A DNA stretch of 64,000 nt from Chloroflexota bacterium (GTDB taxonomy: Bacteria; Chloroflexota; Limnocylindria; Limnocylindrales; CSP1-4), in contig JAICUI010000003.1 of the NCBI GenBank assembly GCA_025935925.1, positions 13,018-77,017 on the forward strand. Reading direction: 5' to 3'. Below the pieces are notes generated by a model. It was not told the origin of the DNA and searched no databases. It was given only the letters and a program-made list of their open reading frames with translations. Positions 31,506 through 59,040 of the stretch are shown piece after piece (the first letter of the stretch is position 1; each line of letters opens with the position of its first letter). The translations under genes and the position numbers were made by a program.

Positions 31506-32486
31506 TCAGGCCGGGGATGCGGCGAGGCTGCCGATCCTCGTCGCGAGCCGGCGGAGGAACTCGTCGGCGCGCGCAGCGGTCGCGACGTCGGCATTCGGGA
31601 TCGGGGCGGACCAGTCGGCGATCGTGCGCCCGTCGTCCGGGCCGCCCGAGGCGTCGACGTCGATCCGCGCGGCCTCTGACGCGACAATCAGCGACGGGTC
31701 GAGCGCGCAGGCGGTCACGAACGGGTCGTGAATGTGGGCGCCGTAGAAGCCGTCGTACGCCTCGTGGAACTCGAAGTAGAAGCGCAGCGCGTCGAGCAGC
31801 GTGCGCTGGAGCTCGCGGTGCGTGCGCGTGCGGTGCGCGAGATCCTCCAGCCCGGGTGGCCGGAGCACCGCGCGCTCGGTCACGTCGAGGCCCATCGCCA
31901 CCATGCGGGGAACCGTCGGGTCCGCCTGGATCGCACGCTGCCAGGCGCCGAAGCACGCCCGCGCGGCCTCCGGGTCGCAGTGGACGTTCCACTCGGACGC
32001 CGGGGTCGTGTTTCCGGGCACCCGGAACGCGCCGCCCATCATGACCCAGCGGCGCAGCAGTCCCGGGAGGGCGGGCTCACGCTCCAGCGCGACGGCGAGG
32101 TTGGTGAGCGGCCCGAGCGTCACGAGGGTGACCTCGCCCGGGCGGTCGCGTGCCGTCTCGACGATCACGTCGGGAGCGAACCGCGGCGACGCCTCGCCGG
32201 GCGGCTCCCGCGGCGCCGCGTAGCCGAGGCCGCGCGGGCCGTGCGTCTCGGGCGTGACCTCGAGGGGGCGCTCCAGCGGGGCGGGCCGCCCGGCCACGAC
32301 CTCGACGTCGGCGCGACCGGCGAGCGCCAGCACGGCACGGGTGTTGCGCACGACGTCGTCGAGGGTCGCGTTGCCGGCCGAGCACGTCACGGCGACGAGC
32401 TCCGCGTCCGGGCTGCCGGCGGCGTACAGCAGGGCGAGCGCGTCGTCGATCCCGGTGTCGACGTCCAGGAGCAGCGGCGTGCCCAC
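31506..32486 (-). CDS. Nucleoside hydrolase (IU-NH family)
   Basis: DVDTGIDD motif; LGPLTNLA; MGGA..PGN.TP.SEWN..CDPEAA; HDP. Confidence 0.92.
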   Translation of the reverse strand: MGTPLLLDVDTGIDDALALLYAAGSPDAELVAVTCSAGNATLDDVVRNTRAVLALAGRADVEVVAGRPAPLERPLEVTPETHGPRGLGYAAPREPPGEASPRFAPDVIVETARDRPGEVTLVTLGPLTNLAVALEREPALPGLLRRWVMMGGAFRVPGNTTPASEWNVHCDPEAARACFGAWQRAIQADPTVPRMVAMGLDVTERAVLRPPGLEDLAHRTRTHRELQRTLLDALRFYFEFHEAYDGFYGAHIHDPFVTACALDPSLIVASEAARIDVDASGGPDDGRTIADWSAPIPNADVATAARADEFLRRLATRIGSLAASPA

Positions 32487-49880: not shown

Positions 49881-50162
49881 TCAGCCTGGCTGTACGAGGT
49901 CCGAGAAGTCGAATCGAAGGCGATCGACCACGAGCGCGTCTCGGAGCGCGGCGTGCGCGGCCAGCATCGTCTCGCCCGAAGCCGCGCTTTCCCGATCTCG
50001 GTCGCCCAGTCGATAGCGCGCGACGAGCCGGACCCCGGGATCAGCAGGCTCAGGGAGCAGCTCGAGCATCTCGGCGCCCGGCCCGAGGAGGAGCTCGCAG
50101 TCATCCTCGATCCAAGCGAGGTGCTCGACCTCAGCCGCCGTGAGTGAAGGGCGTGGCGTCAC
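49881..50162 (-). CDS. Small hypothetical protein
   Basis: VTPRPSLT...FSDLVQPG; plausible codon usage; directly downstream of the BMC operon. Confidence 0.6.
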   Translation of the reverse strand: MTPRPSLTAAEVEHLAWIEDDCELLLGPGAEMLELLPEPADPGVRLVARYRLGDRDRESAASGETMLAAHAALRDALVVDRLRFDFSDLVQPG

Positions 50163-50218
50163 GAGCCGCAGTGTGCTACTCAGCCGCCGCGTCCACAAGA
50201 CGCTCGGGTCGCAGAGCG

Positions 50219-50557
50219 TTACGTCGCCCGGGGAGTGCGTCGGCGGGTCGTCCCCTTCGCCACGGGCGGTGGAGCGCTCGCGGAGGTCGTCGGCGCGTCC
50301 ACGTGATCGACGATCCCCACGATGACCGTCCTGAGCGGTCCGTATGGCGCGCCGACGATCTGGCGCGCGCTCGACCCCTCGTCGAGCACGAGGACGGTCT
50401 CGCCCGCCCCGGCTCCGACCGTGTCGACCGCCACGAGATAGCCGGAACCGGGCCGGCCGTCGGGCTCCAGGAGGTCCACGAGCAGCAGCGCCCGTTCCTC
50501 GAAGATCGGTGCCTTGATCGTCGAAACCACCGTGCCGACGACCTTCGCGAGCTTCAC
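50219..50557 (-). CDS. BMC vertex protein (BMC-P, EutN/CcmL family) no. 3, with a basic C-terminal tail
   Basis: VKLAKVVGTVVST.K..VAVDTVGAG.GE.VLV..GSSAR..IVGIVD. Confidence 0.92.
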   Translation of the reverse strand: MKLAKVVGTVVSTIKAPIFEERALLLVDLLEPDGRPGSGYLVAVDTVGAGAGETVLVLDEGSSARQIVGAPYGPLRTVIVGIVDHVDAPTTSASAPPPVAKGTTRRRTPRAT

Positions 50558-50829
50558 CGTCGGAGCTCCGACACGGCGTCCACGATCCCGACGATCGCGT
50601 GGTCCACGGGCACGAACCGGTTGGGCATCGCCTCGGCCGCCTCGCGCGCGCCGACGATGAACACCAGCTCGCCGGGTCCCGCCATCTCGACCGCGTCGGC
50701 GGCCACGACCGCTTGGCCGGCGGGCTGCAGCTGGCGAGTCAGCGGCTGGACGATGAGGAGCCGAAGGCCCTCCATGTTGTCCGCCTTGACCGTCGCAACG
50801 ACGGTGCCGATGACCCGCGCGAGCTGCAT
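50554..50829 (-). CDS. BMC vertex protein (BMC-P) no. 2
   Basis: MQLARVIGTVVAT.K..AADAV..GPGE.V..GAREA..PVDHAIVGIVD. Confidence 0.92.
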   Translation of the reverse strand: MQLARVIGTVVATVKADNMEGLRLLIVQPLTRQLQPAGQAVVAADAVEMAGPGELVFIVGAREAAEAMPNRFVPVDHAIVGIVDAVSELRR

Positions 50830-50831
50830 CG

Positions 50832-51440
50832 CTACGCCTCGCCGCCGGCGGCGCCCAGGCGGTCGCGGAACCGCGGCGCACCCTCGAGCTCCGCGCGCAT
50901 CTCGTGGTGGAGCTGCGGGATCACCCGGGCCACGGGGAGCCGCGACGAAGGCGCCGACGCGTCCGAGATGCGCTCGACCGCGATCGCCACCGCGGCCTCG
51001 ACGTCCGAGACGGACCCGTCGAACAGCAGGTAGCCCTTGCCACCCAGCCCGTCGGCCAGGCGGAGCTCGAGCAGCTCGACCGCCGCACCCTTCACGCCCG
51101 CATCGGCCGCCTCGATCGTCGACGCGACGGTCGCCGTCTCCACGACCCCCAGCGCATCGCCGCCACCCGCGCGCCGATCGCCCCGGAGCGCCCCGACGAC
51201 CTGTGCGTGGACGTTGGGCAGCAGGACGACGTCGACCAGCGACGCCTCGCCGACCTCGACACCCGCCCGGAACGCCTCCTCGACGTCGGCGACCTCGCCC
51301 GTCACGAGCACGAGGTACCGGCCGGGATGCACCGTGCCGGCTCGCAGCACCTCCACCGGCGCCCGCTTGACCATCGCGTCGCCGGCCTCGATGCCCACGG
51401 CGATCGAGGCGAGCTCCAGCAGCGCGAGCGCAGGCCCCAC
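50832..51440 (-). CDS. Tandem-domain shell protein (BMC-T, single-layer type)
   Basis: Two BMC domains: LELASIAVGIEAGDAMVK..GEVADV and VETATVASTIEAADAGVK..GSVSDV. Confidence 0.92.
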   Translation of the reverse strand: MGPALALLELASIAVGIEAGDAMVKRAPVEVLRAGTVHPGRYLVLVTGEVADVEEAFRAGVEVGEASLVDVVLLPNVHAQVVGALRGDRRAGGGDALGVVETATVASTIEAADAGVKGAAVELLELRLADGLGGKGYLLFDGSVSDVEAAVAIAVERISDASAPSSRLPVARVIPQLHHEMRAELEGAPRFRDRLGAAGGEA

Positions 51441-52892
51441 TCAGACGATCCGCATCGCGCCGACGACGGTGATCCGTCGCTCGCGCGAGAACGTCCGGGG
51501 CCGCGTCATGCCGTCGCCCGACGGGCTCGCGATCGACATCGTCGCGAAGCCTTCCCCGCCCTGGCCCAGGCCGGAGAAGTTCGGCCCGTTGGCCACGAAG
51601 ATCGAGCAGTTCATCGCCCGCGCCATCGCGGTGATCGCGGTGACGTTCGTCGAGTGGATCGAGGCCGTGTGCCGGAACGAGTGCTCCGCCCGGACCGCGA
51701 GGTCGATCGCGGCCGTGACGTCCGGCACCCGGACCACGGGCATCACCGGCATCATCTGCTCGGTCCAGACGAGGCTGTGCTCCACGGGCACCTCGGCGAC
51801 GAGCAGCCGCGGCTCGACCGTCGGCCGGACGCCGATCTCGGCCAGGATCCTCGACGCGTCCCGCCCGATCCACGCCGGGTTGACGTGCCCGGGCTTCCCC
51901 GGCGCGCCGAGCTCCGTGAAGATCACGCGCTCGAGCTTGCGCAGCTCGTGCTCCGCGAGGACGTACGCGCCGCTCTCGGCCATCGAGCGGACGAGCCGGT
52001 CCGCGATCGAGGCGACGGCGATCGTCTCCTTCTCGTCGGTGCACACGATGTTGTTGTCGAACGACGCGCCGAGGACGATGTCCCGGCCGGCCTTGTCGAC
52101 GTCCGCCGTCTCGTCGACGACCGCCGGCGGATTGCCGGGACCCGCCGTGATCGCGCGCTTGTCGCTCTTGAGCGCCTCGCGGACGACGCCGGGGCCGCCG
52201 GTGACGAGGAGGACGCGGACGTCGCGATGCGACATGAGCAGCCGGGCCGACTCGATGGTCGGTTCGACCGTCGAGACCACGAAGTGCGGCGGCCCGCCGG
52301 CATCGACGATCGCCTTGTTCACCAGCCGCACGGCGGCGTTCGAGACCCGCCGCGCCGATGGGTGCGGGTTGAACACGACCGCGTTTCCCGCGGAGACGAT
52401 GGCGATCGCGTTGGACAGGATCGTGGCACCGGGGTTCGTGACGGGCGTGATCGCGCCGACCACCCCGAACGGCGCCCATTCGGTGACCATCATCCCGCGG
52501 GCGCCGGTCACGGCCTCGACCTCGAGGTCCTCGGGCCCCGGCGCCTTCTCGAGCACGAGCCGGTTCTTCGTGATCTTGTCGTCGATGCGGCCGAGGCCGG
52601 TCTCCTCGACGGCCATCCGCGCGAGCACCTCGGCCTGCTCCAGCCCGGCCTTCCGGACCGCCGCGATGATCGTCTTCCGCTGGTCGAGCTCCATGCGCGT
52701 GCCGCGATACGCGGCCGCGGCCGCGGCGATCGCCTCGTCCAGGGTCGGGAAGACGCCGTCGCCGGTCGCGGTCGACGATGGCCCGGCCAGGGCGTCCTGG
52801 ACCGCGATCCGCTTGCCGAGCTGCGGCCCGGGCTCACCGACCCGCCGCCGGACCCGCTCGATGATGTCGCTGATCTCGCGCTCGTCGACCAT
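51441..52892 (-). CDS. CoA-acylating aldehyde dehydrogenase (EutE/PduP family) with an N-terminal encapsulation peptide
   Basis: EETGLGR..DKITKN; PFGVVGAITPVTNP; TGGPGVV; AGPGNPP; SFDNNIVC; EQMMP; HTASIHS. Confidence 0.93.
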   Translation of the reverse strand: MVDEREISDIIERVRRRVGEPGPQLGKRIAVQDALAGPSSTATGDGVFPTLDEAIAAAAAAYRGTRMELDQRKTIIAAVRKAGLEQAEVLARMAVEETGLGRIDDKITKNRLVLEKAPGPEDLEVEAVTGARGMMVTEWAPFGVVGAITPVTNPGATILSNAIAIVSAGNAVVFNPHPSARRVSNAAVRLVNKAIVDAGGPPHFVVSTVEPTIESARLLMSHRDVRVLLVTGGPGVVREALKSDKRAITAGPGNPPAVVDETADVDKAGRDIVLGASFDNNIVCTDEKETIAVASIADRLVRSMAESGAYVLAEHELRKLERVIFTELGAPGKPGHVNPAWIGRDASRILAEIGVRPTVEPRLLVAEVPVEHSLVWTEQMMPVMPVVRVPDVTAAIDLAVRAEHSFRHTASIHSTNVTAITAMARAMNCSIFVANGPNFSGLGQGGEGFATMSIASPSGDGMTRPRTFSRERRITVVGAMRIV

Positions 52893-52895
52893 CGG

Positions 52896-53183
52896 TTACT
52901 TGTGGTAGACCTCCGCGCCGCCCACCTCGAAGGTGTCGACGATCGCCATGATCACGGCGTCGCACGGCCGGTCCCGGGTGATCTCGGTCTGCCGGGCCGA
53001 CGAGCCCGACGCGTACAGCACCACCTCGCCCACGCCCGCGCCGACGGCGTCGGTCGCGACGACGTAGCCGCCGGTCGGCTGGTTGTCGACCCCGAGCTGC
53101 TGCACGACCAGCAGCCGCCAGCCCTCCATCAGGGGCTCCTTGCGGGTGGCGACGACCGTGCCCGCGATCCGTCCGAGGAGCAT
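52896..53183 (-). CDS. BMC vertex protein (BMC-P) no. 1
   Basis: [44 protein letters not shown]. Confidence 0.93.
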
Positions 53184-53267
53184 GCGTGTCCTCCGTGCCC
53201 GCCACCGGGACGGCGACGCGGATCGCCGCGAACGCCGTCCCGCCGAGGGTCCGACCTGTCGAGCCGC

Positions 53268-53570
53268 CTACCCGAGCTCCGCCCGCGCCTCGTCCGCGCG
53301 GCCCAGCGGCAGCACCGTGTCGACGTTCGCGTGCGGCCGGGCGATGACATGCGTCGAGACGACCTCGCCGACCTTCGAGGCGGAGCGCGCGCCCGCCTCG
53401 ACCGCCGCCTTGACGGCCGCGACGTCGCCACGGACGACCGCGGTGACGTAGCCGCCGCCCGTCTTCTCGTAGCTCACGAGCTCGACCTTGGCGGCCTTGA
53501 CCATCGCGTCGGCCGCCTCGACCACCGCGGCGAACCCGCGGGCCTCGATCATCCCCAGTGCTTCTGCCAT
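53268..53570 (-). CDS. Hexameric shell protein (BMC-H, PduA/EutM-like)
   Basis: [48 protein letters not shown]. Confidence 0.96.
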
Positions 53571-53610
53571 CGGACCCTCTCCCTGTGTGGTTGCCTGTCG
53601 TTGCTGTTCG

Positions 53611-54240
53611 TTATCCCTTGGCGTCGCGGCCGTCGATGCCCTCGATGGCGGCCGCGGCCGCCTGCCAGCCCACGTCGATGTCCCGCTCCTCGCCGCCCAG
53701 GTACACGCGGCCCATCGACCCGAACGAGCGGACCTCGAGGACGTTGATCGCCGCCGCCTTCTCGGCCTCGTTCGCGGCGAGCGGCGCATACGCGGCTGGC
53801 TCCATCTCGAGCACGTACAGCGACTGGCCGCCGAGGATCATGTGGCCGTGGCGCGTCCTGTTGATGAGCTGCGCCTGGTGATCGTCGAGGCGGCGGATGA
53901 TCTGGCTCGACAGGATCCGCGGCTTGATCCGCGCGGTCTCCTCGACGCCGATCTCCTGGAGGATCGCCGCGCCGGCCGCCCGGACCTCGGCCTGCGATGG
54001 CGAGTGGATCTCGAGCAGGCCGAAGTAGCGCTCGATGATCTGCATGCCGGGCTTGACCTGCGTCGACTTGAGCGCGATGTCGGTCAGGCGGTTGATCTCG
54101 ATGCCCGGCGCGACCTCGATGTACAGCGAGGCGTCGCCCGGCAACGGCAGGAAGCCCTGCGCCACCGTCCCCAGGAACGCGGCGTACTGCGGCTGGAGGT
54201 TGTCCAGGAAGCAGAACGCCCTGAGCTCAATACCGGCCAC
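53611..54240 (-). CDS. Circularly permuted double-stacking shell protein (BMC-Tdp, CcmP/CsoS1D-like)
   Basis: [11 protein letters not shown]; [16 protein letters not shown]; [10 protein letters not shown]; QLINR; [22 protein letters not shown]; GRVYL.G. Confidence 0.9.
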
Positions 54241-55120
54241 TGGCGGCCCCTCCCTCTCCGGTCACGATCTTCACGCCCGCCGACGCCCCGATCCGGGTGG
54301 CGCCGGCGGCGATCATCTCCTCGACGTCGTCCCTGGTCCGGATGCCGCCCGAGGCCTTGACGCCCATCCGCGGCCCGACCGCCTCGCGCATCAGCGCGAC
54401 GTCGAACACGGTGGCGCCGCCGGAGGCGTACCCGGTGCTCGTCTTGACGAAGTCGGCCTTCGCCTCCTTGGCGAGCCGGCTCGCGATGACCTTCTCGCGG
54501 TCGTCGAGCAGCGCGGTCTCGAGGATGACCTTGTTGAGCGCGCCCGACTCGTGGCAGGCGTCCGAGACCCGCGCGATGTCGTCGCGGACGACGTCGAACA
54601 TGCGCGACTTGAGCGCCCCGATATTGATCACCATGTCGATCTCTCGCGCTCCGGCGCGGATGACCTGGCGTGCCTCGTGCGCCTTGATCTCGGCCGACGT
54701 CGCGCCGAACGGGAAGCCGACGACGCTCGCGACCGGGATCCCGGTGCCCTTGAGGTTGGCGGCGGCGCGCGGGACCCAGAACGGGTTGATGCACACGCTG
54801 GCGAACCGGTGCTCCACCGCCTCGGCGCACAGCTTGTCGATGTCGGCGCTGCAGGCATCCGGCTTGAGCAGCGTGTGGTCGATGTAGCGGGCGAGGTCGT
54901 CGGGGACGTGGCCGGCCTGGCCGGTATAGGAGACGCGCGAAGCGCCGCCGGCGACGACCTCCGCGACCCGCGGCGCGCACTGGCCCGCGCACGCGCCCGA
55001 GCAGGTGCCGCCGCAGCCGTCACACACGGCGGACGAACCGCGGCTGGCCGCGAGCGTCGCCATCACCTCGCGGGTGATCGCCTCGATGAGGAGGGCGCGG
55101 TCGTCCGTCTGGGTGGTCAT
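54227..55120 (-). CDS. deoC: Deoxyribose-phosphate aldolase with an N-terminal encapsulation peptide and Cys-rich insert
   Basis: IDHTLLKP; VVGFPFG; EIDMV; KVILET; FVKTSTG; VKASGGIRT; RIGASAG. Confidence 0.93.
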
Positions 55121-55731
55121 CGCTGGGCGTCCGTGCTGTAGCGGTCCTCGATCGCGGAGATCTTCTGCACGCGCTTGCCGTGGCGCTCGGCGCCCCACGG
55201 CGTGGCGAGGAACGTGTCCACGACCTCGAGCGCCAGCCCCTCGCCGATCATCCGTGCCCCGAGCGTCAGCACGTTCGCGTAGTTGTGCTCGCGGGCGTTG
55301 CGGGCCATCGAGACGTCGTGGGCGTTCGCCGCACGAACGCCCGGCACCTTGTTCGCGGCCATCGCCGAGCCGATCCCGGCGCCGTCGATGACGATCCCGG
55401 TCGCACAGGCCCCGGACGCGACGAGCCGCGCGACGACATGCGCGAAGTCGGGATAGTCGACGGCGTCGGCCGTGGTCGTGCCGCAGTCCGTGACGCCGTA
55501 GCCGCGCTCCTGGAGGTGCTTCGCGAGCACCGCCTTCAGGCCGACGCCCCCGTGATCCGCGCCGATCGCGACCGCGTTCGAGGCGCCGCCGGAGGCCGGA
55601 GCCGGGACCGGGCTCGGGGGTGCGGATGTCACGGCGGTCGATCCCGTCGCGGTGCGGGTCTCGGCGGCCGCCATCGCGCGCTCGACGAGCTGCCGGACCA
55701 GGGCCTCGTCGGGCGTCCGCGTCTCAGCCAT
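55117..55731 (-). CDS. rpiB: RpiB/LacAB-family sugar-phosphate isomerase with an N-terminal encapsulation peptide
   Basis: IGADHGG; VDYPD; [20 protein letters not shown]; [14 protein letters not shown]; RH..RV. Confidence 0.9.
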
Positions 55732-56698
55732 GGGCGAGCACCCACGATGCCGTCCCGTCGTCGCACGCCAGCACGTTCACGACCGCCGCGCGGATCGCGG
55801 CGAGCGCGATCGGGCCGCGGCCGGTGCCGGCCGCCACGCCGACGCGCAGCGGCTTGGCGCGCAGGTCCTCGAGCGAGATGCCGACCGCCCGCCGATCGAG
55901 CTTGCGCCACGCGATCTCGCCCTGCGCGTCGAGGAACCGACCGACGACGTCGCCGACCGCGCCCTTCTCGCGGAGCCGGGCCTGCTCGTCGGGCGTGACG
56001 AAGCCGGATCCCAGGTGGGGGCTGTCCGGGGCCGGGATGCCGAGGCCGAACACCGCGGTGTGGGCGGCGCGCGCGGCGTCGAGCGCCTCCTCGACGGCCG
56101 GATCGCCCGCGAGCGCGGTGCTCAGCTCGGCCGTGCCGACGATCGCGGGCGCCGCGAGCGTCCGGAACGACGCCCCCGTCGTCGCGGCGAACCGCTCGAC
56201 GATCTCGTTGGCCCGGGTCGGCTGCTCCGAGCGCGACGTGGCGCCGTTCAGCTGCACGATCTCGTCGGCCTTCGTCCAGCCCATCGGGAGGCGGCGGGCG
56301 ACGGCGAGCATCGTGCGGCCCCACGACACGGCGATCGTTCCGACCGGCGCCCGCTGGGCCAGAAGGTCGACCGCGACCTCGGCGACCGCGTCACGCGCGA
56401 CGTCGTCCGCGGCGAGTCCCTGGGTCGCCGCCGGGACGTCCGCGACGACCGCCGCATCGAGCCCGAACCGGGCCATCAGCGCGTCCTCGAGCTCGACCAG
56501 CCGGGCGTCGGGATGGACGACCTCGATCCGCACGATCGACTCCTCGACCGCGCGATCCAGGAGGCGCCCGACCTGGAAGCGGCTCAGCCCCACGCGCTCG
56601 CCGATCTCCTGCTGGCTGAGGTGCAGCCGGTAGTAGAGCTGGGCGACGCGCACCATCAGGCGGACGTCCGCGTTGCTCCGCCGCTGAACGGCCAGCAC
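55724..56698 (-). CDS. SorC/DeoR (sugar-binding) family transcriptional regulator
   Basis: VAQLYY..HLSQQEIG.R.GLSRFQVGRLL; VSWGRT; GAVGDVVGRF.DAQG. GTG start after GGAGG. Confidence 0.92.
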   Translation of the reverse strand: MLAVQRRSNADVRLMVRVAQLYYRLHLSQQEIGERVGLSRFQVGRLLDRAVEESIVRIEVVHPDARLVELEDALMARFGLDAAVVADVPAATQGLAADDVARDAVAEVAVDLLAQRAPVGTIAVSWGRTMLAVARRLPMGWTKADEIVQLNGATSRSEQPTRANEIVERFAATTGASFRTLAAPAIVGTAELSTALAGDPAVEEALDAARAAHTAVFGLGIPAPDSPHLGSGFVTPDEQARLREKGAVGDVVGRFLDAQGEIAWRKLDRRAVGISLEDLRAKPLRVGVAAGTGRGPIALAAIRAAVVNVLACDDGTASWVLAHG

Positions 56699-56716
56699 CC
56701 TTCGTCGGCCTCCAAT

Positions 56717-56785
56717 GCGCACATCTGAGCAGCGATCCGCTCATGTGTGCGCGGCGAAGCCTACCGCTCCATGCAGCGGTGTCAA
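56717..56785 (-). promoter_or_regulatory. BMC operon promoter (TTGACA-N16-TAGGCT) and a 36-bp palindromic operator
   Basis: -35 at 56785-56780 and -10 at 56763-56758 on the minus strand; arms GCGCACATCTGAGC / GCTCATGTGTGCGC at 56717-56752 (12/14 match, 8-nt spacer). Confidence 0.7.
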
Positions 56786-56805
56786 GGGTGCGGGCCGGGC
56801 CCGGA

Positions 56806-57861
56806 CTACGCGATCGCGCCGTAGACCGCCAGCTGCACGGCATCGATCAGCGGGTCAGCGCCGGACCACGTGCCGCTCAGGAACACGAGCACGAGGTCGC
56901 GCTCGGGGTCGACCCAGAGCCGCGTGCCGCTGACGCCGCCGTGCCCGAACGCCGACGGCGAGCCCGCGCTCGTCGGTCCGGGCTTTCCCCAGCCGATCGC
57001 GTAGTGGTCGTCCATGAGCCGGTCCGCGGTCGCGCCGAGCCCGTCGACGGTCACCTCGCGCGTCATGAGGTCGACGATGGGGCGGCCCAGGATGCGCACC
57101 CCGTCGAGCTCGCCGCCGCGCAGGAATGCCCGCCCGAAGCGGACGAGGTCGTGCGCGGTGCTCCACAGGCCCCCGCCGGCGAGCCGCAGCGAGCTGAACG
57201 CCGCGACGGCGTCGTCGTCCGTGACGCCGGCCATCCGCGGCATCGATCCCGGCAGGTCGCCGTACACGACCGGCGCGCGGCGGTCCGCGGTCGGCAGGTC
57301 GAACCCGGTGTCCGTCATCGCGAGCGGGTCGAGGACGGTCTCGCGCAGCAGCGTCTCGAACGGCGCGTCGAGCGCGCGCTCGATGGCGCCCGTCAGCAGG
57401 TCGAACGTGTCTGATGCGTACCGGAACACGCTCCCGGGCGGCGTCGCCTGACCGCCGGCGATCGTCAGACGTCGCAGCTCGTCCCGGCCGCCGCCCGCGA
57501 GCAGCATGCCCACGAGGTCGATGTCGCCGAGGCCCGTCGTGTGGGTCAGCACGTGCCATGCCGTGAACGGCCGGATCCCTGCGGCGTCGAGCTCGGGGAG
57601 CCACCGACCGAGCGGCGCGCCGAGCGGGAACCGGCCCTCCTGGGCGAGCCGCATCACCGCGGCCGCGACGATCGGCTTGGTGATCGACGCGAGGAGGCAG
57701 ATCGCATCGACGCCGATGCGGTTCCCGCCGCGGCGGCCCCACGCGTCGCTGCGGACCAGGCTGTCCCGGTTCGCCACGGCGACGATCGCGAACGGCAGGT
57801 CACCCTCCTCGACGTGCCGGGCCGCGATCGCGAACGCGGCGTCGAGATCCTTGGCGCGCAT
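56806..57861 (-). CDS. Beta-lactamase-family serine hydrolase
   Basis: SITK (SxxK); LTHTTG; FRYAS; GGGLWST; FGHGGVSGT.LWVDP. Real start at or near 57861; the track's upstream extension is spurious. Confidence 0.88.
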   Translation of the reverse strand: MRAKDLDAAFAIAARHVEEGDLPFAIVAVANRDSLVRSDAWGRRGGNRIGVDAICLLASITKPIVAAAVMRLAQEGRFPLGAPLGRWLPELDAAGIRPFTAWHVLTHTTGLGDIDLVGMLLAGGGRDELRRLTIAGGQATPPGSVFRYASDTFDLLTGAIERALDAPFETLLRETVLDPLAMTDTGFDLPTADRRAPVVYGDLPGSMPRMAGVTDDDAVAAFSSLRLAGGGLWSTAHDLVRFGRAFLRGGELDGVRILGRPIVDLMTREVTVDGLGATADRLMDDHYAIGWGKPGPTSAGSPSAFGHGGVSGTRLWVDPERDLVLVFLSGTWSGADPLIDAVQLAVYGAIA

Positions 57862-58112
57862 CACCGCCAAACGATACGTGGCGTCGAAACGGCTCGGGCA
57901 GGTCGTGCGCCGCTCGTAGTCGCTGCATTCCTGGCCGCTGGCTACGGGCCGAGACAAGGCCCGCTTGGAGCCTCCGTTGGCGGCCTTGACCGCCGGCCGA
58001 TGCGTGGACGAACTCGCGTAAGCGAGAAGGAACCGCGATTCTCGGCGATTCGACCGGCTGCCCGCCGGGCTGAGCCACCCAACGCAACGTCGAGAAATGG
58101 GGCGCATCGGCC

Positions 58113-58173
58113 GGGGAGCTGCGTCCGGACCGCGGAGCTGCGTCCGGGCCGCGGAGCTGCGTCCGCGCCGCGG
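58113..58173. repeat. 19-bp tandem repeat, about 3.2 copies (GCGGAGCTGCGTCCGGGCC)
   Basis: Units start at 58113, 58132 and 58151. Confidence 0.85.
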
Positions 58174-58299
58174 GATGTGCGGGACCTTGCCCAGCACGGA
58201 ACAAGCAGGCAAGGGCGCGGGAACGCGGGAGCCGGAAATCGGCTAATGACGAGGCGCAGGTTTCCCGCGACGCGCCGCCTGGCGGAGTAGCATCTGGGC

Positions 58300-59040
58300 G
58301 TGACCGACGCCGCCCGCGTCCTCGACGCCGCCCCGCCCGGCTCCCCGATCGCGGAGGAGATCCGGCTGCGCCTCGCCGACGCCTGGGGCGAGATGGGCGC
58401 GGCGTGGGGCGTCGCGCCGGCGATCGCCCGCGTGCACGCGTACCTGATGGCCCGCCAGGAGCCGCTGACCGAGCGCGAGGTGAGGGAGGCGCTGGGCCTG
58501 AGCCACCGCGCCGCGAGCCTGGCGCTCGCCGAGGCGGAGTCGTGGGGTCTCGTCGAGCGCATCGCGGAGCCGAGGCGCGTCGGCCGGCGAGGCCCCGCGG
58601 GCGCGGCCTACCAGGCGATCGGCGACCACTGGCGGTGGTTCGGCCGCGTGGTCGCGGAACGCAAGGTCCGCGAAGGAGACCCGATCATCGTCGTCCTGGA
58701 GCAGACGGTCGCCGACACGTCGACCGCCCTCCGCGAGAACCCCGCCGACCCGGACCTCCTCCGGCTGCGAGACTGGCTGTCGACGTTCCTCGTGTTCGTG
58801 CGCCTCTTCGACCGTGCGGTGGGTCTCGTCAGCCGCCTCGAGCCGACCGAGCTCGAGCGGGCCCTGCGCCTCCTCGGCGAGGTCCCGGACGAGACGATCC
58901 TTCGCCTCGTGACCCTCCTCGACGGCCTCGCCGACGAGGACGTGCTCGGGCTGGTCGACGCGCTGAGCCGCCTCTCTCCGCAGGCCGCCGGCCGCGCGAC
59001 GCGGATGATGTCGGGGGTGGTCCGGACGCTCGTCCGCTGA
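58300..59040 (+). CDS. GbsR/MarR-like transcriptional regulator with a C-terminal helical extension
   Basis: WGEMGAAWGV...ARVHAYL..QEPLT..E..E.LGLS....S.AL..AESWGLV. Confidence 0.82.
   Translation: MTDAARVLDAAPPGSPIAEEIRLRLADAWGEMGAAWGVAPAIARVHAYLMARQEPLTEREVREALGLSHRAASLALAEAESWGLVERIAEPRRVGRRGPAGAAYQAIGDHWRWFGRVVAERKVREGDPIIVVLEQTVADTSTALRENPADPDLLRLRDWLSTFLVFVRLFDRAVGLVSRLEPTELERALRLLGEVPDETILRLVTLLDGLADEDVLGLVDALSRLSPQAAGRATRMMSGVVRTLVR

Follow-up and report, generated by a model that had tools for sequence, protein, structure and literature searches.

We analyzed a 64,000-nucleotide stretch of DNA ("the window") from contig JAICUI010000003.1 (positions 13,018 to 77,017 of the forward strand; assembly GCA_025935925.1), which belongs to an uncultured, high-GC Chloroflexota metagenome-assembled genome (MAG). 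Positions 50219-56698 of its minus strand hold a genuine, intact and complete ten-gene operon for a bacterial microcompartment (BMC), a metabolosome of the sugar-phosphate-utilizing (SPU) class and of subtype SPU3. The encoded organelle most likely degrades deoxyribose-5-phosphate (dR5P) derived from DNA, a conclusion we hold with good confidence. The operon is recognized by its gene content and by the domain identities of its products, and it is further characterized by conserved residues, by synteny with related loci, by purifying selection on its genes and by a conserved element upstream. An SPU-type assignment had already been made in a preliminary description of this DNA, and it is borne out by the shell protein families, the deoxyribose-phosphate aldolase (DERA, DeoC), the CoA-acylating aldehyde dehydrogenase (AldDH) and an RpiB-like protein (RPI) encoded next to DERA.

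All ten open reading frames are intact and lie on the minus strand, and the domains of all ten products are as expected from Pfam and structure matches. The first gene (55724-56698) encodes a 324-amino-acid (aa) regulator of the SorC/DeoR subfamily, with a Pfam Sugar-bind/SorC match (E 1.6e-51) and an N-terminal helix-turn-helix (HTH). It is followed by the genes for the RpiB-like protein (55117-55731; 204 aa; Pfam LacAB_rpiB, E 3.2e-51, residues 54-191) and for DERA, the signature enzyme of the locus (54227-55120; 297 aa; Pfam DeoC, E 3.3e-20). Two shell genes come next, encoding BMC-Tdp, a CcmP-like double-stacking trimer (53611-54240; 209 aa; full-length match to CcmP 4HT5, E 2.8e-83), and BMC-H, the sole hexamer shell protein (53268-53570; 100 aa; Pfam BMC, E 3.7e-29). 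The solitary pentamer gene, that of the first BMC-P (P1; 52896-53183; 95 aa; Pfam EutN_CcmL, E 3.8e-29), precedes the gene for the CoA-acylating AldDH (51441-52892; 483 aa; Pfam Aldedh, PF00171, E 1.1e-30). The operon ends with the genes for BMC-Ts, a PduT-like tandem-domain protein in which Pfam finds two BMC domains (50832-51440; 202 aa; E 2.6e-34), and for two further BMC-P proteins, P2 (50554-50829; 91 aa; Pfam EutN_CcmL, E 3.8e-26) and P3 (50219-50557; 112 aa; Pfam EutN_CcmL, E 7e-22). Three of the shell genes are of the PF00936 type (H, Ts and Tdp) and three of the PF03319 type, all inside 4.1 kb.

Gene list, order and strand had been given correctly in the preliminary description, as the reading frames and Pfam matches confirm; the starts have since been refined to GTG at 56698 for the regulator, ATG at 55120 for DERA, ATG at 53570 for BMC-H and GTG at 50557 for the last BMC-P. 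The tight or overlapping packing that it reported also holds, with overlaps or spacings of 0-3 nucleotides (nt) at all junctions except for two gaps of 40 and 84 nt. Overlaps join the regulator and RPI genes (8 nt), RPI and DERA (4 nt), DERA and Tdp (14 nt) and P2 and P3 (4 nt), the GTG start of P3 overlapping the stop of P2 (GTGA). P1 and AldDH are separated by 3 nt, AldDH and Ts by 0 nt and Ts and P2 by 2 nt. The wider gaps lie between Tdp and BMC-H (40 nt) and between BMC-H and P1 (84 nt), and both contain Shine-Dalgarno-like sequences, the one ahead of BMC-H being GGGAGAGGG.

Subtype, shell and inheritance of the locus

The SPU class was defined in 2014, and by 2021 more than 280 loci in 26 phyla were known, divided into seven subtypes. 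The published description of SPU3, based on 31 loci in 2021, lists AldDH, pfam01791 and pfam02502 as the only enzymes, N-terminal encapsulation peptides (EPs) on AldDH and the pfam01791 protein, one standard BMC-H, a BMC-P triplet, a CcmP-like Tdp, and a Ts that comes without PduS and without a pore cysteine; the hosts are Acidobacteria, Actinobacteria, Calditrichaeota, Chloroflexi, Proteobacteria, Marinimicrobia and other phyla (Sutter et al. 2021, Nat Commun 12:3809; PMC8217296). Assigned by this description, the locus reads as a typical SPU3 on every point that can be judged from sequence. AldDH, DERA and RPI are the only enzymes of the operon, and its Tdp was placed in the CcmP-like clade from the best solved relatives, among which CcmP is ahead of CsoS1D.

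We mapped the ten proteins by tblastn onto 80 loci (given L-numbers) retrieved with DERA. The order RPI-DERA-Tdp-H-P-AldDH-Ts-P-P recurs in at least 16 of them, in six or more phyla. It is found in MAGs labeled 'Chloroflexia' (L001, L002, L003, L010 and L012), in Acidimicrobiia (L005 and L006), in Thermoanaerobaculia and other Acidobacteriota (L007, L009, L058 and L062), in Woeseiaceae (L075 and L080), in Promineifilaceae (L038) and, with insertions, in Ardenticatenaceae-type genomes (L032 and L048). Calditrichia are also among the groups with this order, as is Neomarinimicrobiota, where the contig ends within the locus (L079). The operon had been called unusually minimal, a view that fails because its enzyme and shell set equals that of the SPU3 description and is widely shared; its layout is the standard one for SPU3, in the same order across many phyla.

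Anaerolineae, including the cultured Levilinea saccharolytica (L014), have the SPU6 order RPI-DERA-P-AldDH-H-Tdp-P-P. SPU6 was considered for our locus, the host being a Chloroflexota, and was rejected on gene order, on the presence of Ts, on the N-terminal position of the AldDH EP and on an AldDH identity of 30-36% to SPU6-type loci. SPU2 is also a poorer fit, since loci of that subtype have an extra green-clade BMC-P, mostly Cys-pore Ts proteins and other host phyla. One of the SPU6-type loci, from a 'Chloroflexia' MAG (L049:9870-12876), gave split tblastn hits for BMC-P, AldDH and Tdp, which reflect either the frameshifts of a decaying locus or assembly errors.

Among the shell proteins, the Tdp is about 65% identical to CcmP, and its matches are led by the CcmP structures 4HT5 and 5LSR (E ~3e-83), followed by the HO shell proteins 5V76 and 5V74 (Haliangium trimers) and CsoS1D (2e-53). 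The Glu-Arg pair in its IIERYFG motif aligns with FIERLYG of CcmP. Against the Pfam BMC model this protein scores 20.3 bits, under the gathering cut-off of 24.5, and a Pfam-only annotation would leave its gene (53611-54240) as hypothetical. BMC-H is the most conserved gene of the locus, with 93-94% identity to its counterparts in L001 and L010 and a ratio of nonsynonymous to synonymous substitution rates (dN/dS) of 0.08-0.10. The closest solved relatives of Ts are the PduT structures 3PAC and 3N79. Its TVHPGRY motif aligns with TICPGKF of PduT, with His in place of the pore Cys, and the whole Ts contains no Cys. A search limited to the genes of the locus found no PduS homolog.

The three BMC-P proteins are mutually 39-49% identical, P1 being 47-49% identical to P2 and P3. 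The P2 and P3 genes are adjacent, which fits the published rule that two of the three BMC-P genes are always side by side. P3 ends in a C-terminal tail of about 28 aa (50219-50305) that is rich in Pro and Arg (APTTSASAPPPVAKGTTRRRTPRAT, five K/R). Arg-rich tails are also present on P3 in L001, L010 and L002, and on none of the P3 proteins in more distant SPU3 loci.

The closest genomes to the host, whose assembly is 87% complete, are MAGs labeled 'uncultured Chloroflexia bacterium'. With Tdp as a marker, the locus was traced in 24 of the 37 species genomes of the genus and in none of 24 genomes sampled from a sister family within the order (G037-G060; 1.0-1.4 Mb, 78-93% completeness). One carrier, L010, is a single 3.6-Mb chromosome that shares the flanks of our locus, namely PdxS/PdxT, a small regulator and a beta-lactamase-like gene. 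All ten genes are under purifying selection, with dN/dS of 0.08-0.28 relative to L010 and L001; dS is imprecise owing to extreme GC3 bias, and the direction is clear. By these comparisons the locus is maintained in the genus as a trait that is mostly passed on vertically. It is very unlikely to be the silent or decaying relic of a BMC island that arrived by horizontal transfer, with no organelle being formed. In favor of a relic, the Tdp marker is patchy within the genus and missing from 13 of the 37 genomes, four of them at least 90% complete, but all ten frames are intact and the dN/dS of each gene is far below 1, the GC content of the operon (0.72) is the same as in the remainder of the window, the flanks are shared with L010, and the regulatory elements upstream are conserved.

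Two genomes of the genus, G033 (C4:392584-394126) and G034 (C11:161164-162700), have no SPU3-type Tdp and carry two adjacent, divergent Tdp genes of 40-44% identity, a locus whose sequence points to another type of BMC within this genus. In our window, the genes immediately upstream of the operon encode a beta-lactamase-like serine hydrolase (56806-58212, minus strand) and a small regulator (58300-59040, plus strand). Their synteny with the locus extends to L010 and, in part, to L001, and they have no evident functional link to the BMC.

Enzymes of the core

Residues 73-293 of DERA align with solved DERAs (8QPS, E 7e-71), and the motifs EIDMV, FVKTSTG and GVKASGG are retained. The catalytic Asp and the two Lys listed by Dwyer et al. 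(PMC11585597) were placed in these motifs by eye. Ahead of the catalytic domain is an N-terminal extension of about 72 aa, and residues 1-72 are covered by no solved structure. Its features (54977-55099, minus strand) are an EP-like helix at aa 8-25 (55046-55099) and a Cys-rich segment at aa 33-48 (54977-55024). An alignment of 50 homologs (69-95% identity) shows no variation at C36 or C44, and conservation of 90% or more at C40 and C48. At least four Cys occur in this stretch in about 40 of the first 50 related loci, SPU3 and SPU6 alike, a count taken with a few non-coding residues from upstream included. L007 and L008 (Thermoanaerobaculia) have none of these Cys, and two are left in L036, L039, L042 and L047 (Anaerolineae). 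The spacing is C-x3-C-x3-C-x3-C here and C-x2-C-x3-C-x3-C in most relatives. An AlphaFold2 model built from a 50-sequence alignment has a confident barrel and a predicted helix at residues 4-25. It gives the extension a predicted local distance difference test (pLDDT) score below 50, and so it is uninformative on whether the four Cys cluster.

Elsewhere in the genome there are two DeoC copies (C9 and C107) and one RpiB copy (C118, with ICGSG intact), all of which are without an N-terminal extension. An N-terminal helix and linker are thus confined to the locus copies of DERA and RPI, which we count in favor of their encapsulation.

The RpiB-like protein begins with a 53-aa N-terminal extension made up of an amphipathic helix (hydrophobic moment, muH, 0.49) and a linker rich in Pro, Ala and Ser. 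A docking module of the EutQ-N type was excluded, as the 53 aa taken up by helix and linker leave no room for one. In the catalytic domain, the Cys of the active site is replaced by Asp (VIDGAGIG versus VICGTGLG in C. thermocellum RpiB, 3PH3). Of the 20 related SPU3 and SPU6 loci checked, 19 have the DGAGIG pattern, and L017 gave no match to it. The Cys-to-Asp change makes it unlikely that this protein is a normal isomerase of ribose-5-phosphate (R5P). The name rpiB, under which the gene had been listed, is therefore right as to the RpiB/LacAB family and misleading in the R5P isomerase that it implies.

Among solved structures, AldDH is closest to 5JFL (E 1e-124) and then to 4C3S, both listed as 'Aldehyde dehydrogenase', which we take to be acylating enzymes associated with BMCs. 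In the alignment with 5JFL, the Cys of FDNNIVCTDEKE is retained, opposite FDNNLPCVAEKE. The N-terminal segment REISDIIERVRRRV has a muH of 0.86, the highest among all 14-mers of the protein. The C-terminus has no extension. The EP-like helix is N-terminal in the AldDH of this locus and of its syntenic relatives, and the SPU6-type enzymes of L013 and L014 bear C-terminal EP-like helices.

As the only aldehyde-generating enzyme of the locus, and one with an encapsulation-type extension, DERA also bears on whether the shell might serve mainly for the detoxification or assimilation of acetaldehyde from another source, such as ethanol or ethanolamine, DERA being accessory or acting in condensation. 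In vitro the DERA reaction is reversible, and satellite ethanolamine-utilization (EUT) modules, with EutABC and EutL, occur in some SPU3 and SPU6 genomes, where they possibly feed the same shell. In the assembly studied here, no further shell gene and no EutL-type gene was found (EutBC were not searched for), and DERA is the universal signature of SPU loci (PMC11585597). We regard an organelle of this kind as extremely unlikely, slightly more so than a silent remnant.

Neither the Asp-type RPI nor the Cys stripe of DERA is explained in the literature examined, and neither that stripe nor the Arg-rich P3 tail of the Chloroflexota clade is discussed in the SPU literature among it. It is conceivable, if rather improbable, that the SPU3 core holds chemistry outside the published scheme, in which dR5P yields glyceraldehyde-3-phosphate (GAP) and acetyl-CoA. 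The RpiB-like protein would then be a re-tooled isomerase or a ligand-binding subunit, and the four-Cys stripe of DERA a metal-binding or redox-active assembly module.

Regulation, substrate supply and proposed pathway

Upstream of the regulator gene, on the minus strand, is a promoter-like element (56758-56785) defined by its conservation across genomes: TTGACA at 56785-56780, a 16-nt spacer and TAGGCT at 56763-56758. TTGACA is invariant in L010 and L001, and the -10-like hexamer is invariant at five of its six positions (T, A, G, C and T). Between this hexamer and the start codon of the regulator is a candidate operator (56719-56750, minus strand), an imperfect inverted repeat of the form GCACACATGAGC-N8-GCTCAGATGTGC. 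Both of its arms are nearly invariant in L010 and L001, and the spacer and the flanking non-coding DNA vary by substitutions and indels. The conserved -35 and -10 hexamers and the repeat amount to a phylogenetic footprint, from which we infer a promoter. A strict sigma-70 consensus scan of 50000-57000 found no promoter, and no minus-strand terminator either; the element escaped it because the -10 hexamer fits the consensus at only three of six positions. The single promoter of the preliminary description can be verified only in part: its end coordinate points to a conserved promoter-like and operator-like stretch (56719-56785), which is not a consensus promoter. A single regulated promoter ahead of the regulator gene is plausible from the sequence, and internal promoters are also possible.

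The layout had been described as self-regulated, and the first gene of the operon does encode its own SorC-type regulator. The GTG start of this gene is kept in relatives, and its dN/dS is 0.20-0.25. Orthologs head the locus in the Chloroflexota relatives L001, L010, L002 and L012 only; in other loci the upstream gene encodes a TetR-family (L007) or AsnC-family (L050) regulator, a signal peptidase (L028, L038 and L048) or a nucleoside phosphorylase (L075). The best solved relative of the regulator is DeoR, the deoxyribonucleoside regulator of Bacillus subtilis (8R7Y, E 2.6e-36, full-length), with LsrR next. B. subtilis DeoR represses dra-nupC-pdp and is released on covalent binding of dR5P, and SorC-family repressors bind palindromic half-operators as tetramers (PMC11229326). 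By homology, the effector of the regulator is likely a sugar phosphate.

As to the supply of dR5P, the genome has seven matches to nucleoside hydrolases, five to the PNP family and 11 to PfkB. A cluster on another contig (C107:30548-35897) combines a PfkB kinase, a DeoC without extension, an inosine-uridine nucleoside hydrolase and two PNP/UDP-family phosphorylases, and is apparently cytosolic. It makes a route to dR5P by way of a hydrolase and a deoxyribokinase plausible. In other phyla a nucleoside phosphorylase (L075) and a nucleoside hydrolase (L038) adjoin SPU3 loci. The contig of the operon itself also carries two of the seven matches to inosine-uridine nucleoside hydrolases, one in the window at 31554-32471 (minus strand), about 18 kb away, and one past its end (C75:78470-79366).

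For the recycling of cofactors, no PduL-type phosphotransacylase (PTAC; PF06130) was found in the whole assembly, which is 87% complete. A PTA_PTB search gave one weak partial match of 31 bits, and one good match to an iron-containing alcohol dehydrogenase lies on C90, unlinked to the locus. At the stated completeness of the assembly, absences of enzymes are not conclusive. The lack of PTAC, alcohol dehydrogenase and PduS is a known open issue of SPU2, SPU3 and SPU6. Tdp genes are typical of SPU types that lack PTAC, and exit of acetyl-CoA through its large gated pore has been proposed (PMC11585597). With no phosphotransacylase, alcohol dehydrogenase or PduS in the operon, acetyl-CoA and NADH probably leave by the Tdp pore here as well.

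In the pathway that we infer from these genes, a SorC/DeoR-type repressor would bind the conserved inverted repeat downstream of the promoter and be released by a phosphorylated sugar, most plausibly dR5P or a sugar phosphate related to it. BMC-H, the three BMC-P, Tdp and Ts, six proteins in all, would form a polyhedral shell, to which N-terminal amphipathic helices would recruit DERA, the RpiB-like protein and AldDH. The RpiB-like protein is most likely a DERA-binding packaging partner and not an R5P isomerase. Cytosolic dR5P would derive from deoxynucleosides, likely by the action of nucleoside hydrolases or phosphorylases and a PfkB sugar kinase. Once inside the shell, dR5P would be split by DERA into GAP, which would exit to glycolysis, and acetaldehyde, which would be retained. 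AldDH would then convert acetaldehyde, NAD+ and CoA to acetyl-CoA. Acetyl-CoA and NADH would probably exit, and CoA and NAD+ return, through the large gated pore of Tdp. For homologs, DERA has been shown to act on dR5P and to form a complex with RPI, which is itself inactive; we expect the same here. The step from DeoC through acetaldehyde to AldDH had been proposed before for this locus, and it coincides with the published model.

Several observations weigh against this pathway. The RpiB-like protein keeps the His of its EHN motif and the C-terminal Arg and His, and its dN/dS is 0.16-0.26; retained residues and purifying selection fit a ligand-binding or catalytic role as well as that of a scaffold. 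Phosphopentomutase (TIGR01696) was not found in the assembly, so that the classical route from deoxyribose-1-phosphate to dR5P is missing. The need for an encapsulated DERA beside the cytosolic DeoC of C107 is unexplained. For cofactor traffic by way of Tdp, the pathway follows a hypothesis from published work. In the regulator, the residue aligned with the Lys of the DeoR motif QLKGG, presumably Lys141, which binds dR5P covalently, is Asn (IVQLNGA). Asn is found at this position in three of the four relatives checked (L010, L012 and L002), and the pattern was not found in L001. Covalent binding of dR5P is thus not expected, and the inducer may differ or bind otherwise. The regulator may act like DeoR, yet it is not to be filed as a covalent dR5P sensor of the DeoR type.

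Alternatively, the organelle might handle a different or additional sugar phosphate, with the RpiB-like protein as a working isomerase that uses the Asp as its base and either converts another pentose or deoxypentose phosphate to the true substrate of DERA or acts on a DERA product, dR5P being only part of the story. The recurrence of the Asp in 19 of 20 loci argues against random decay, the His and the C-terminal residues of the phosphate-binding type are retained, the low dN/dS values point the same way, and the regulator does without the DeoR-type Lys at the aligned position. There is also a precedent in the RpiB of M. tuberculosis, which uses a Glu base, and RPIs are broad in specificity (PMC11585597). 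Against this stand data from the same study: R5P was turned over to a negligible extent by SPU6 RPI, Dwyer et al. saw no obvious place for RPI catalysis in SPU chemistry, and RPI is absent from all SPU5 loci and present in 18 of 29 SPU4 loci (PMC11585597). A structural partner binding DERA would likewise be expected to be under purifying selection. We consider a working isomerase of this kind unlikely, and degradation of DNA-derived dR5P, with RPI as a packaging partner, remains our preferred explanation.

Comparison with known systems

Few metabolosomes are as widespread as the SPU organelles, whose presumed role is to allow bacteria of soil and sediment to feed on DNA debris. Enzymes of the class have been studied for an SPU6 locus in Chloroflexi bacterium GWB2_54_36, of which DERA and RPI were purified and assayed in vitro (Dwyer, Sutter, Kerfeld 2024, Commun Biol 7:1562; PMC11585597). 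That DERA cleaves dR5P, and it forms a complex with the RPI, which shows no activity on R5P; the study also reported the Cys-to-Asp change for all SPU RPIs and found that the DERA extension causes insolubility (PMC11585597). For archaeal SPU homologs, self-assembly of the shell and EP-dependent recruitment of cargo have been described in a 2025 preprint (bioRxiv 2025.11.08.687404; PMC12747264). The earlier remark that SPU systems lack in vivo characterization still stands as regards the native host, for which no study of organelle physiology was found in the literature searched; it is outdated insofar as SPU6 enzymes have now been studied in vitro, and archaeal shells as well.

Against this background the locus is known in kind, and no feature sets it apart from published SPU3 loci. 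It adds a clean, compact example of SPU3 from a common soil Chloroflexota genus, together with a recognizable SorC-type regulator and a conserved promoter- and operator-like element suited to reporter or binding assays. The questions that it carries are class-wide: the missing recycling of cofactors and the parts played by the Asp-type RPI and by the DERA extension. As the organism is uncultured, the locus offers no advantage for testing over carriers in culture, such as Levilinea saccharolytica (SPU6).

Compared with the SPU6 locus of GWB2_54_36, our locus is alike in the N-terminal extension of about 70 aa on DERA, in the N-terminal EP and the Cys-to-Asp change of RPI, in the set of AldDH, DERA and RPI with neither PTAC nor PduS, and in having a Tdp, three BMC-P genes and a regulator of the sugar-phosphate type in front. 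It is unlike SPU6 in that the latter has the order RPI-DERA-P-AldDH-H-Tdp-P-P and no Ts, an AldDH of 30-36% identity with a C-terminal EP, a Tdp of another clade that is about 50% identical, and a GntR/UTRA regulator in place of SorC.

The SPU-type loci of Hodarchaeales (PMC12747264) share the core of DERA and AldDH, and recruitment there is EP-dependent. They differ in an additional flavoprotein-DERA fusion, in PTAC and MNdh, and in a Ts with a Cys pore. One of their BMC-P proteins has a disordered, K/R-rich extension that is reported to bind DNA, which recalls the short Arg-rich tail of P3; the archaeal extensions are 36-137 aa long, whereas the tail of P3 has about 28 aa.

The regulator resembles B. 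subtilis DeoR (PDB 8R7Y and 4OQP) in combining an HTH with a sugar-binding domain, in its association with an operon for deoxyribose-phosphate aldolase, which DeoR controls, and in the palindrome of the operator, a candidate one here. Unlike DeoR, it is encoded by the first gene of the operon that it presumably controls, and the candidate operator lies downstream of the -10 hexamer and is unrelated in sequence to the DeoR operator.

The closest likeness is to SPU3 as published (PMC8217296), from which the locus differs in nothing essential. RPI directly precedes DERA, and the published host phyla are those in which we found the same gene order. The SorC/DeoR-type regulator as first gene and the Arg-rich tail on the last BMC-P are details of this lineage, and RPI and DERA are separate proteins here, unlike in a subset of SPU3 loci in which the two are fused.

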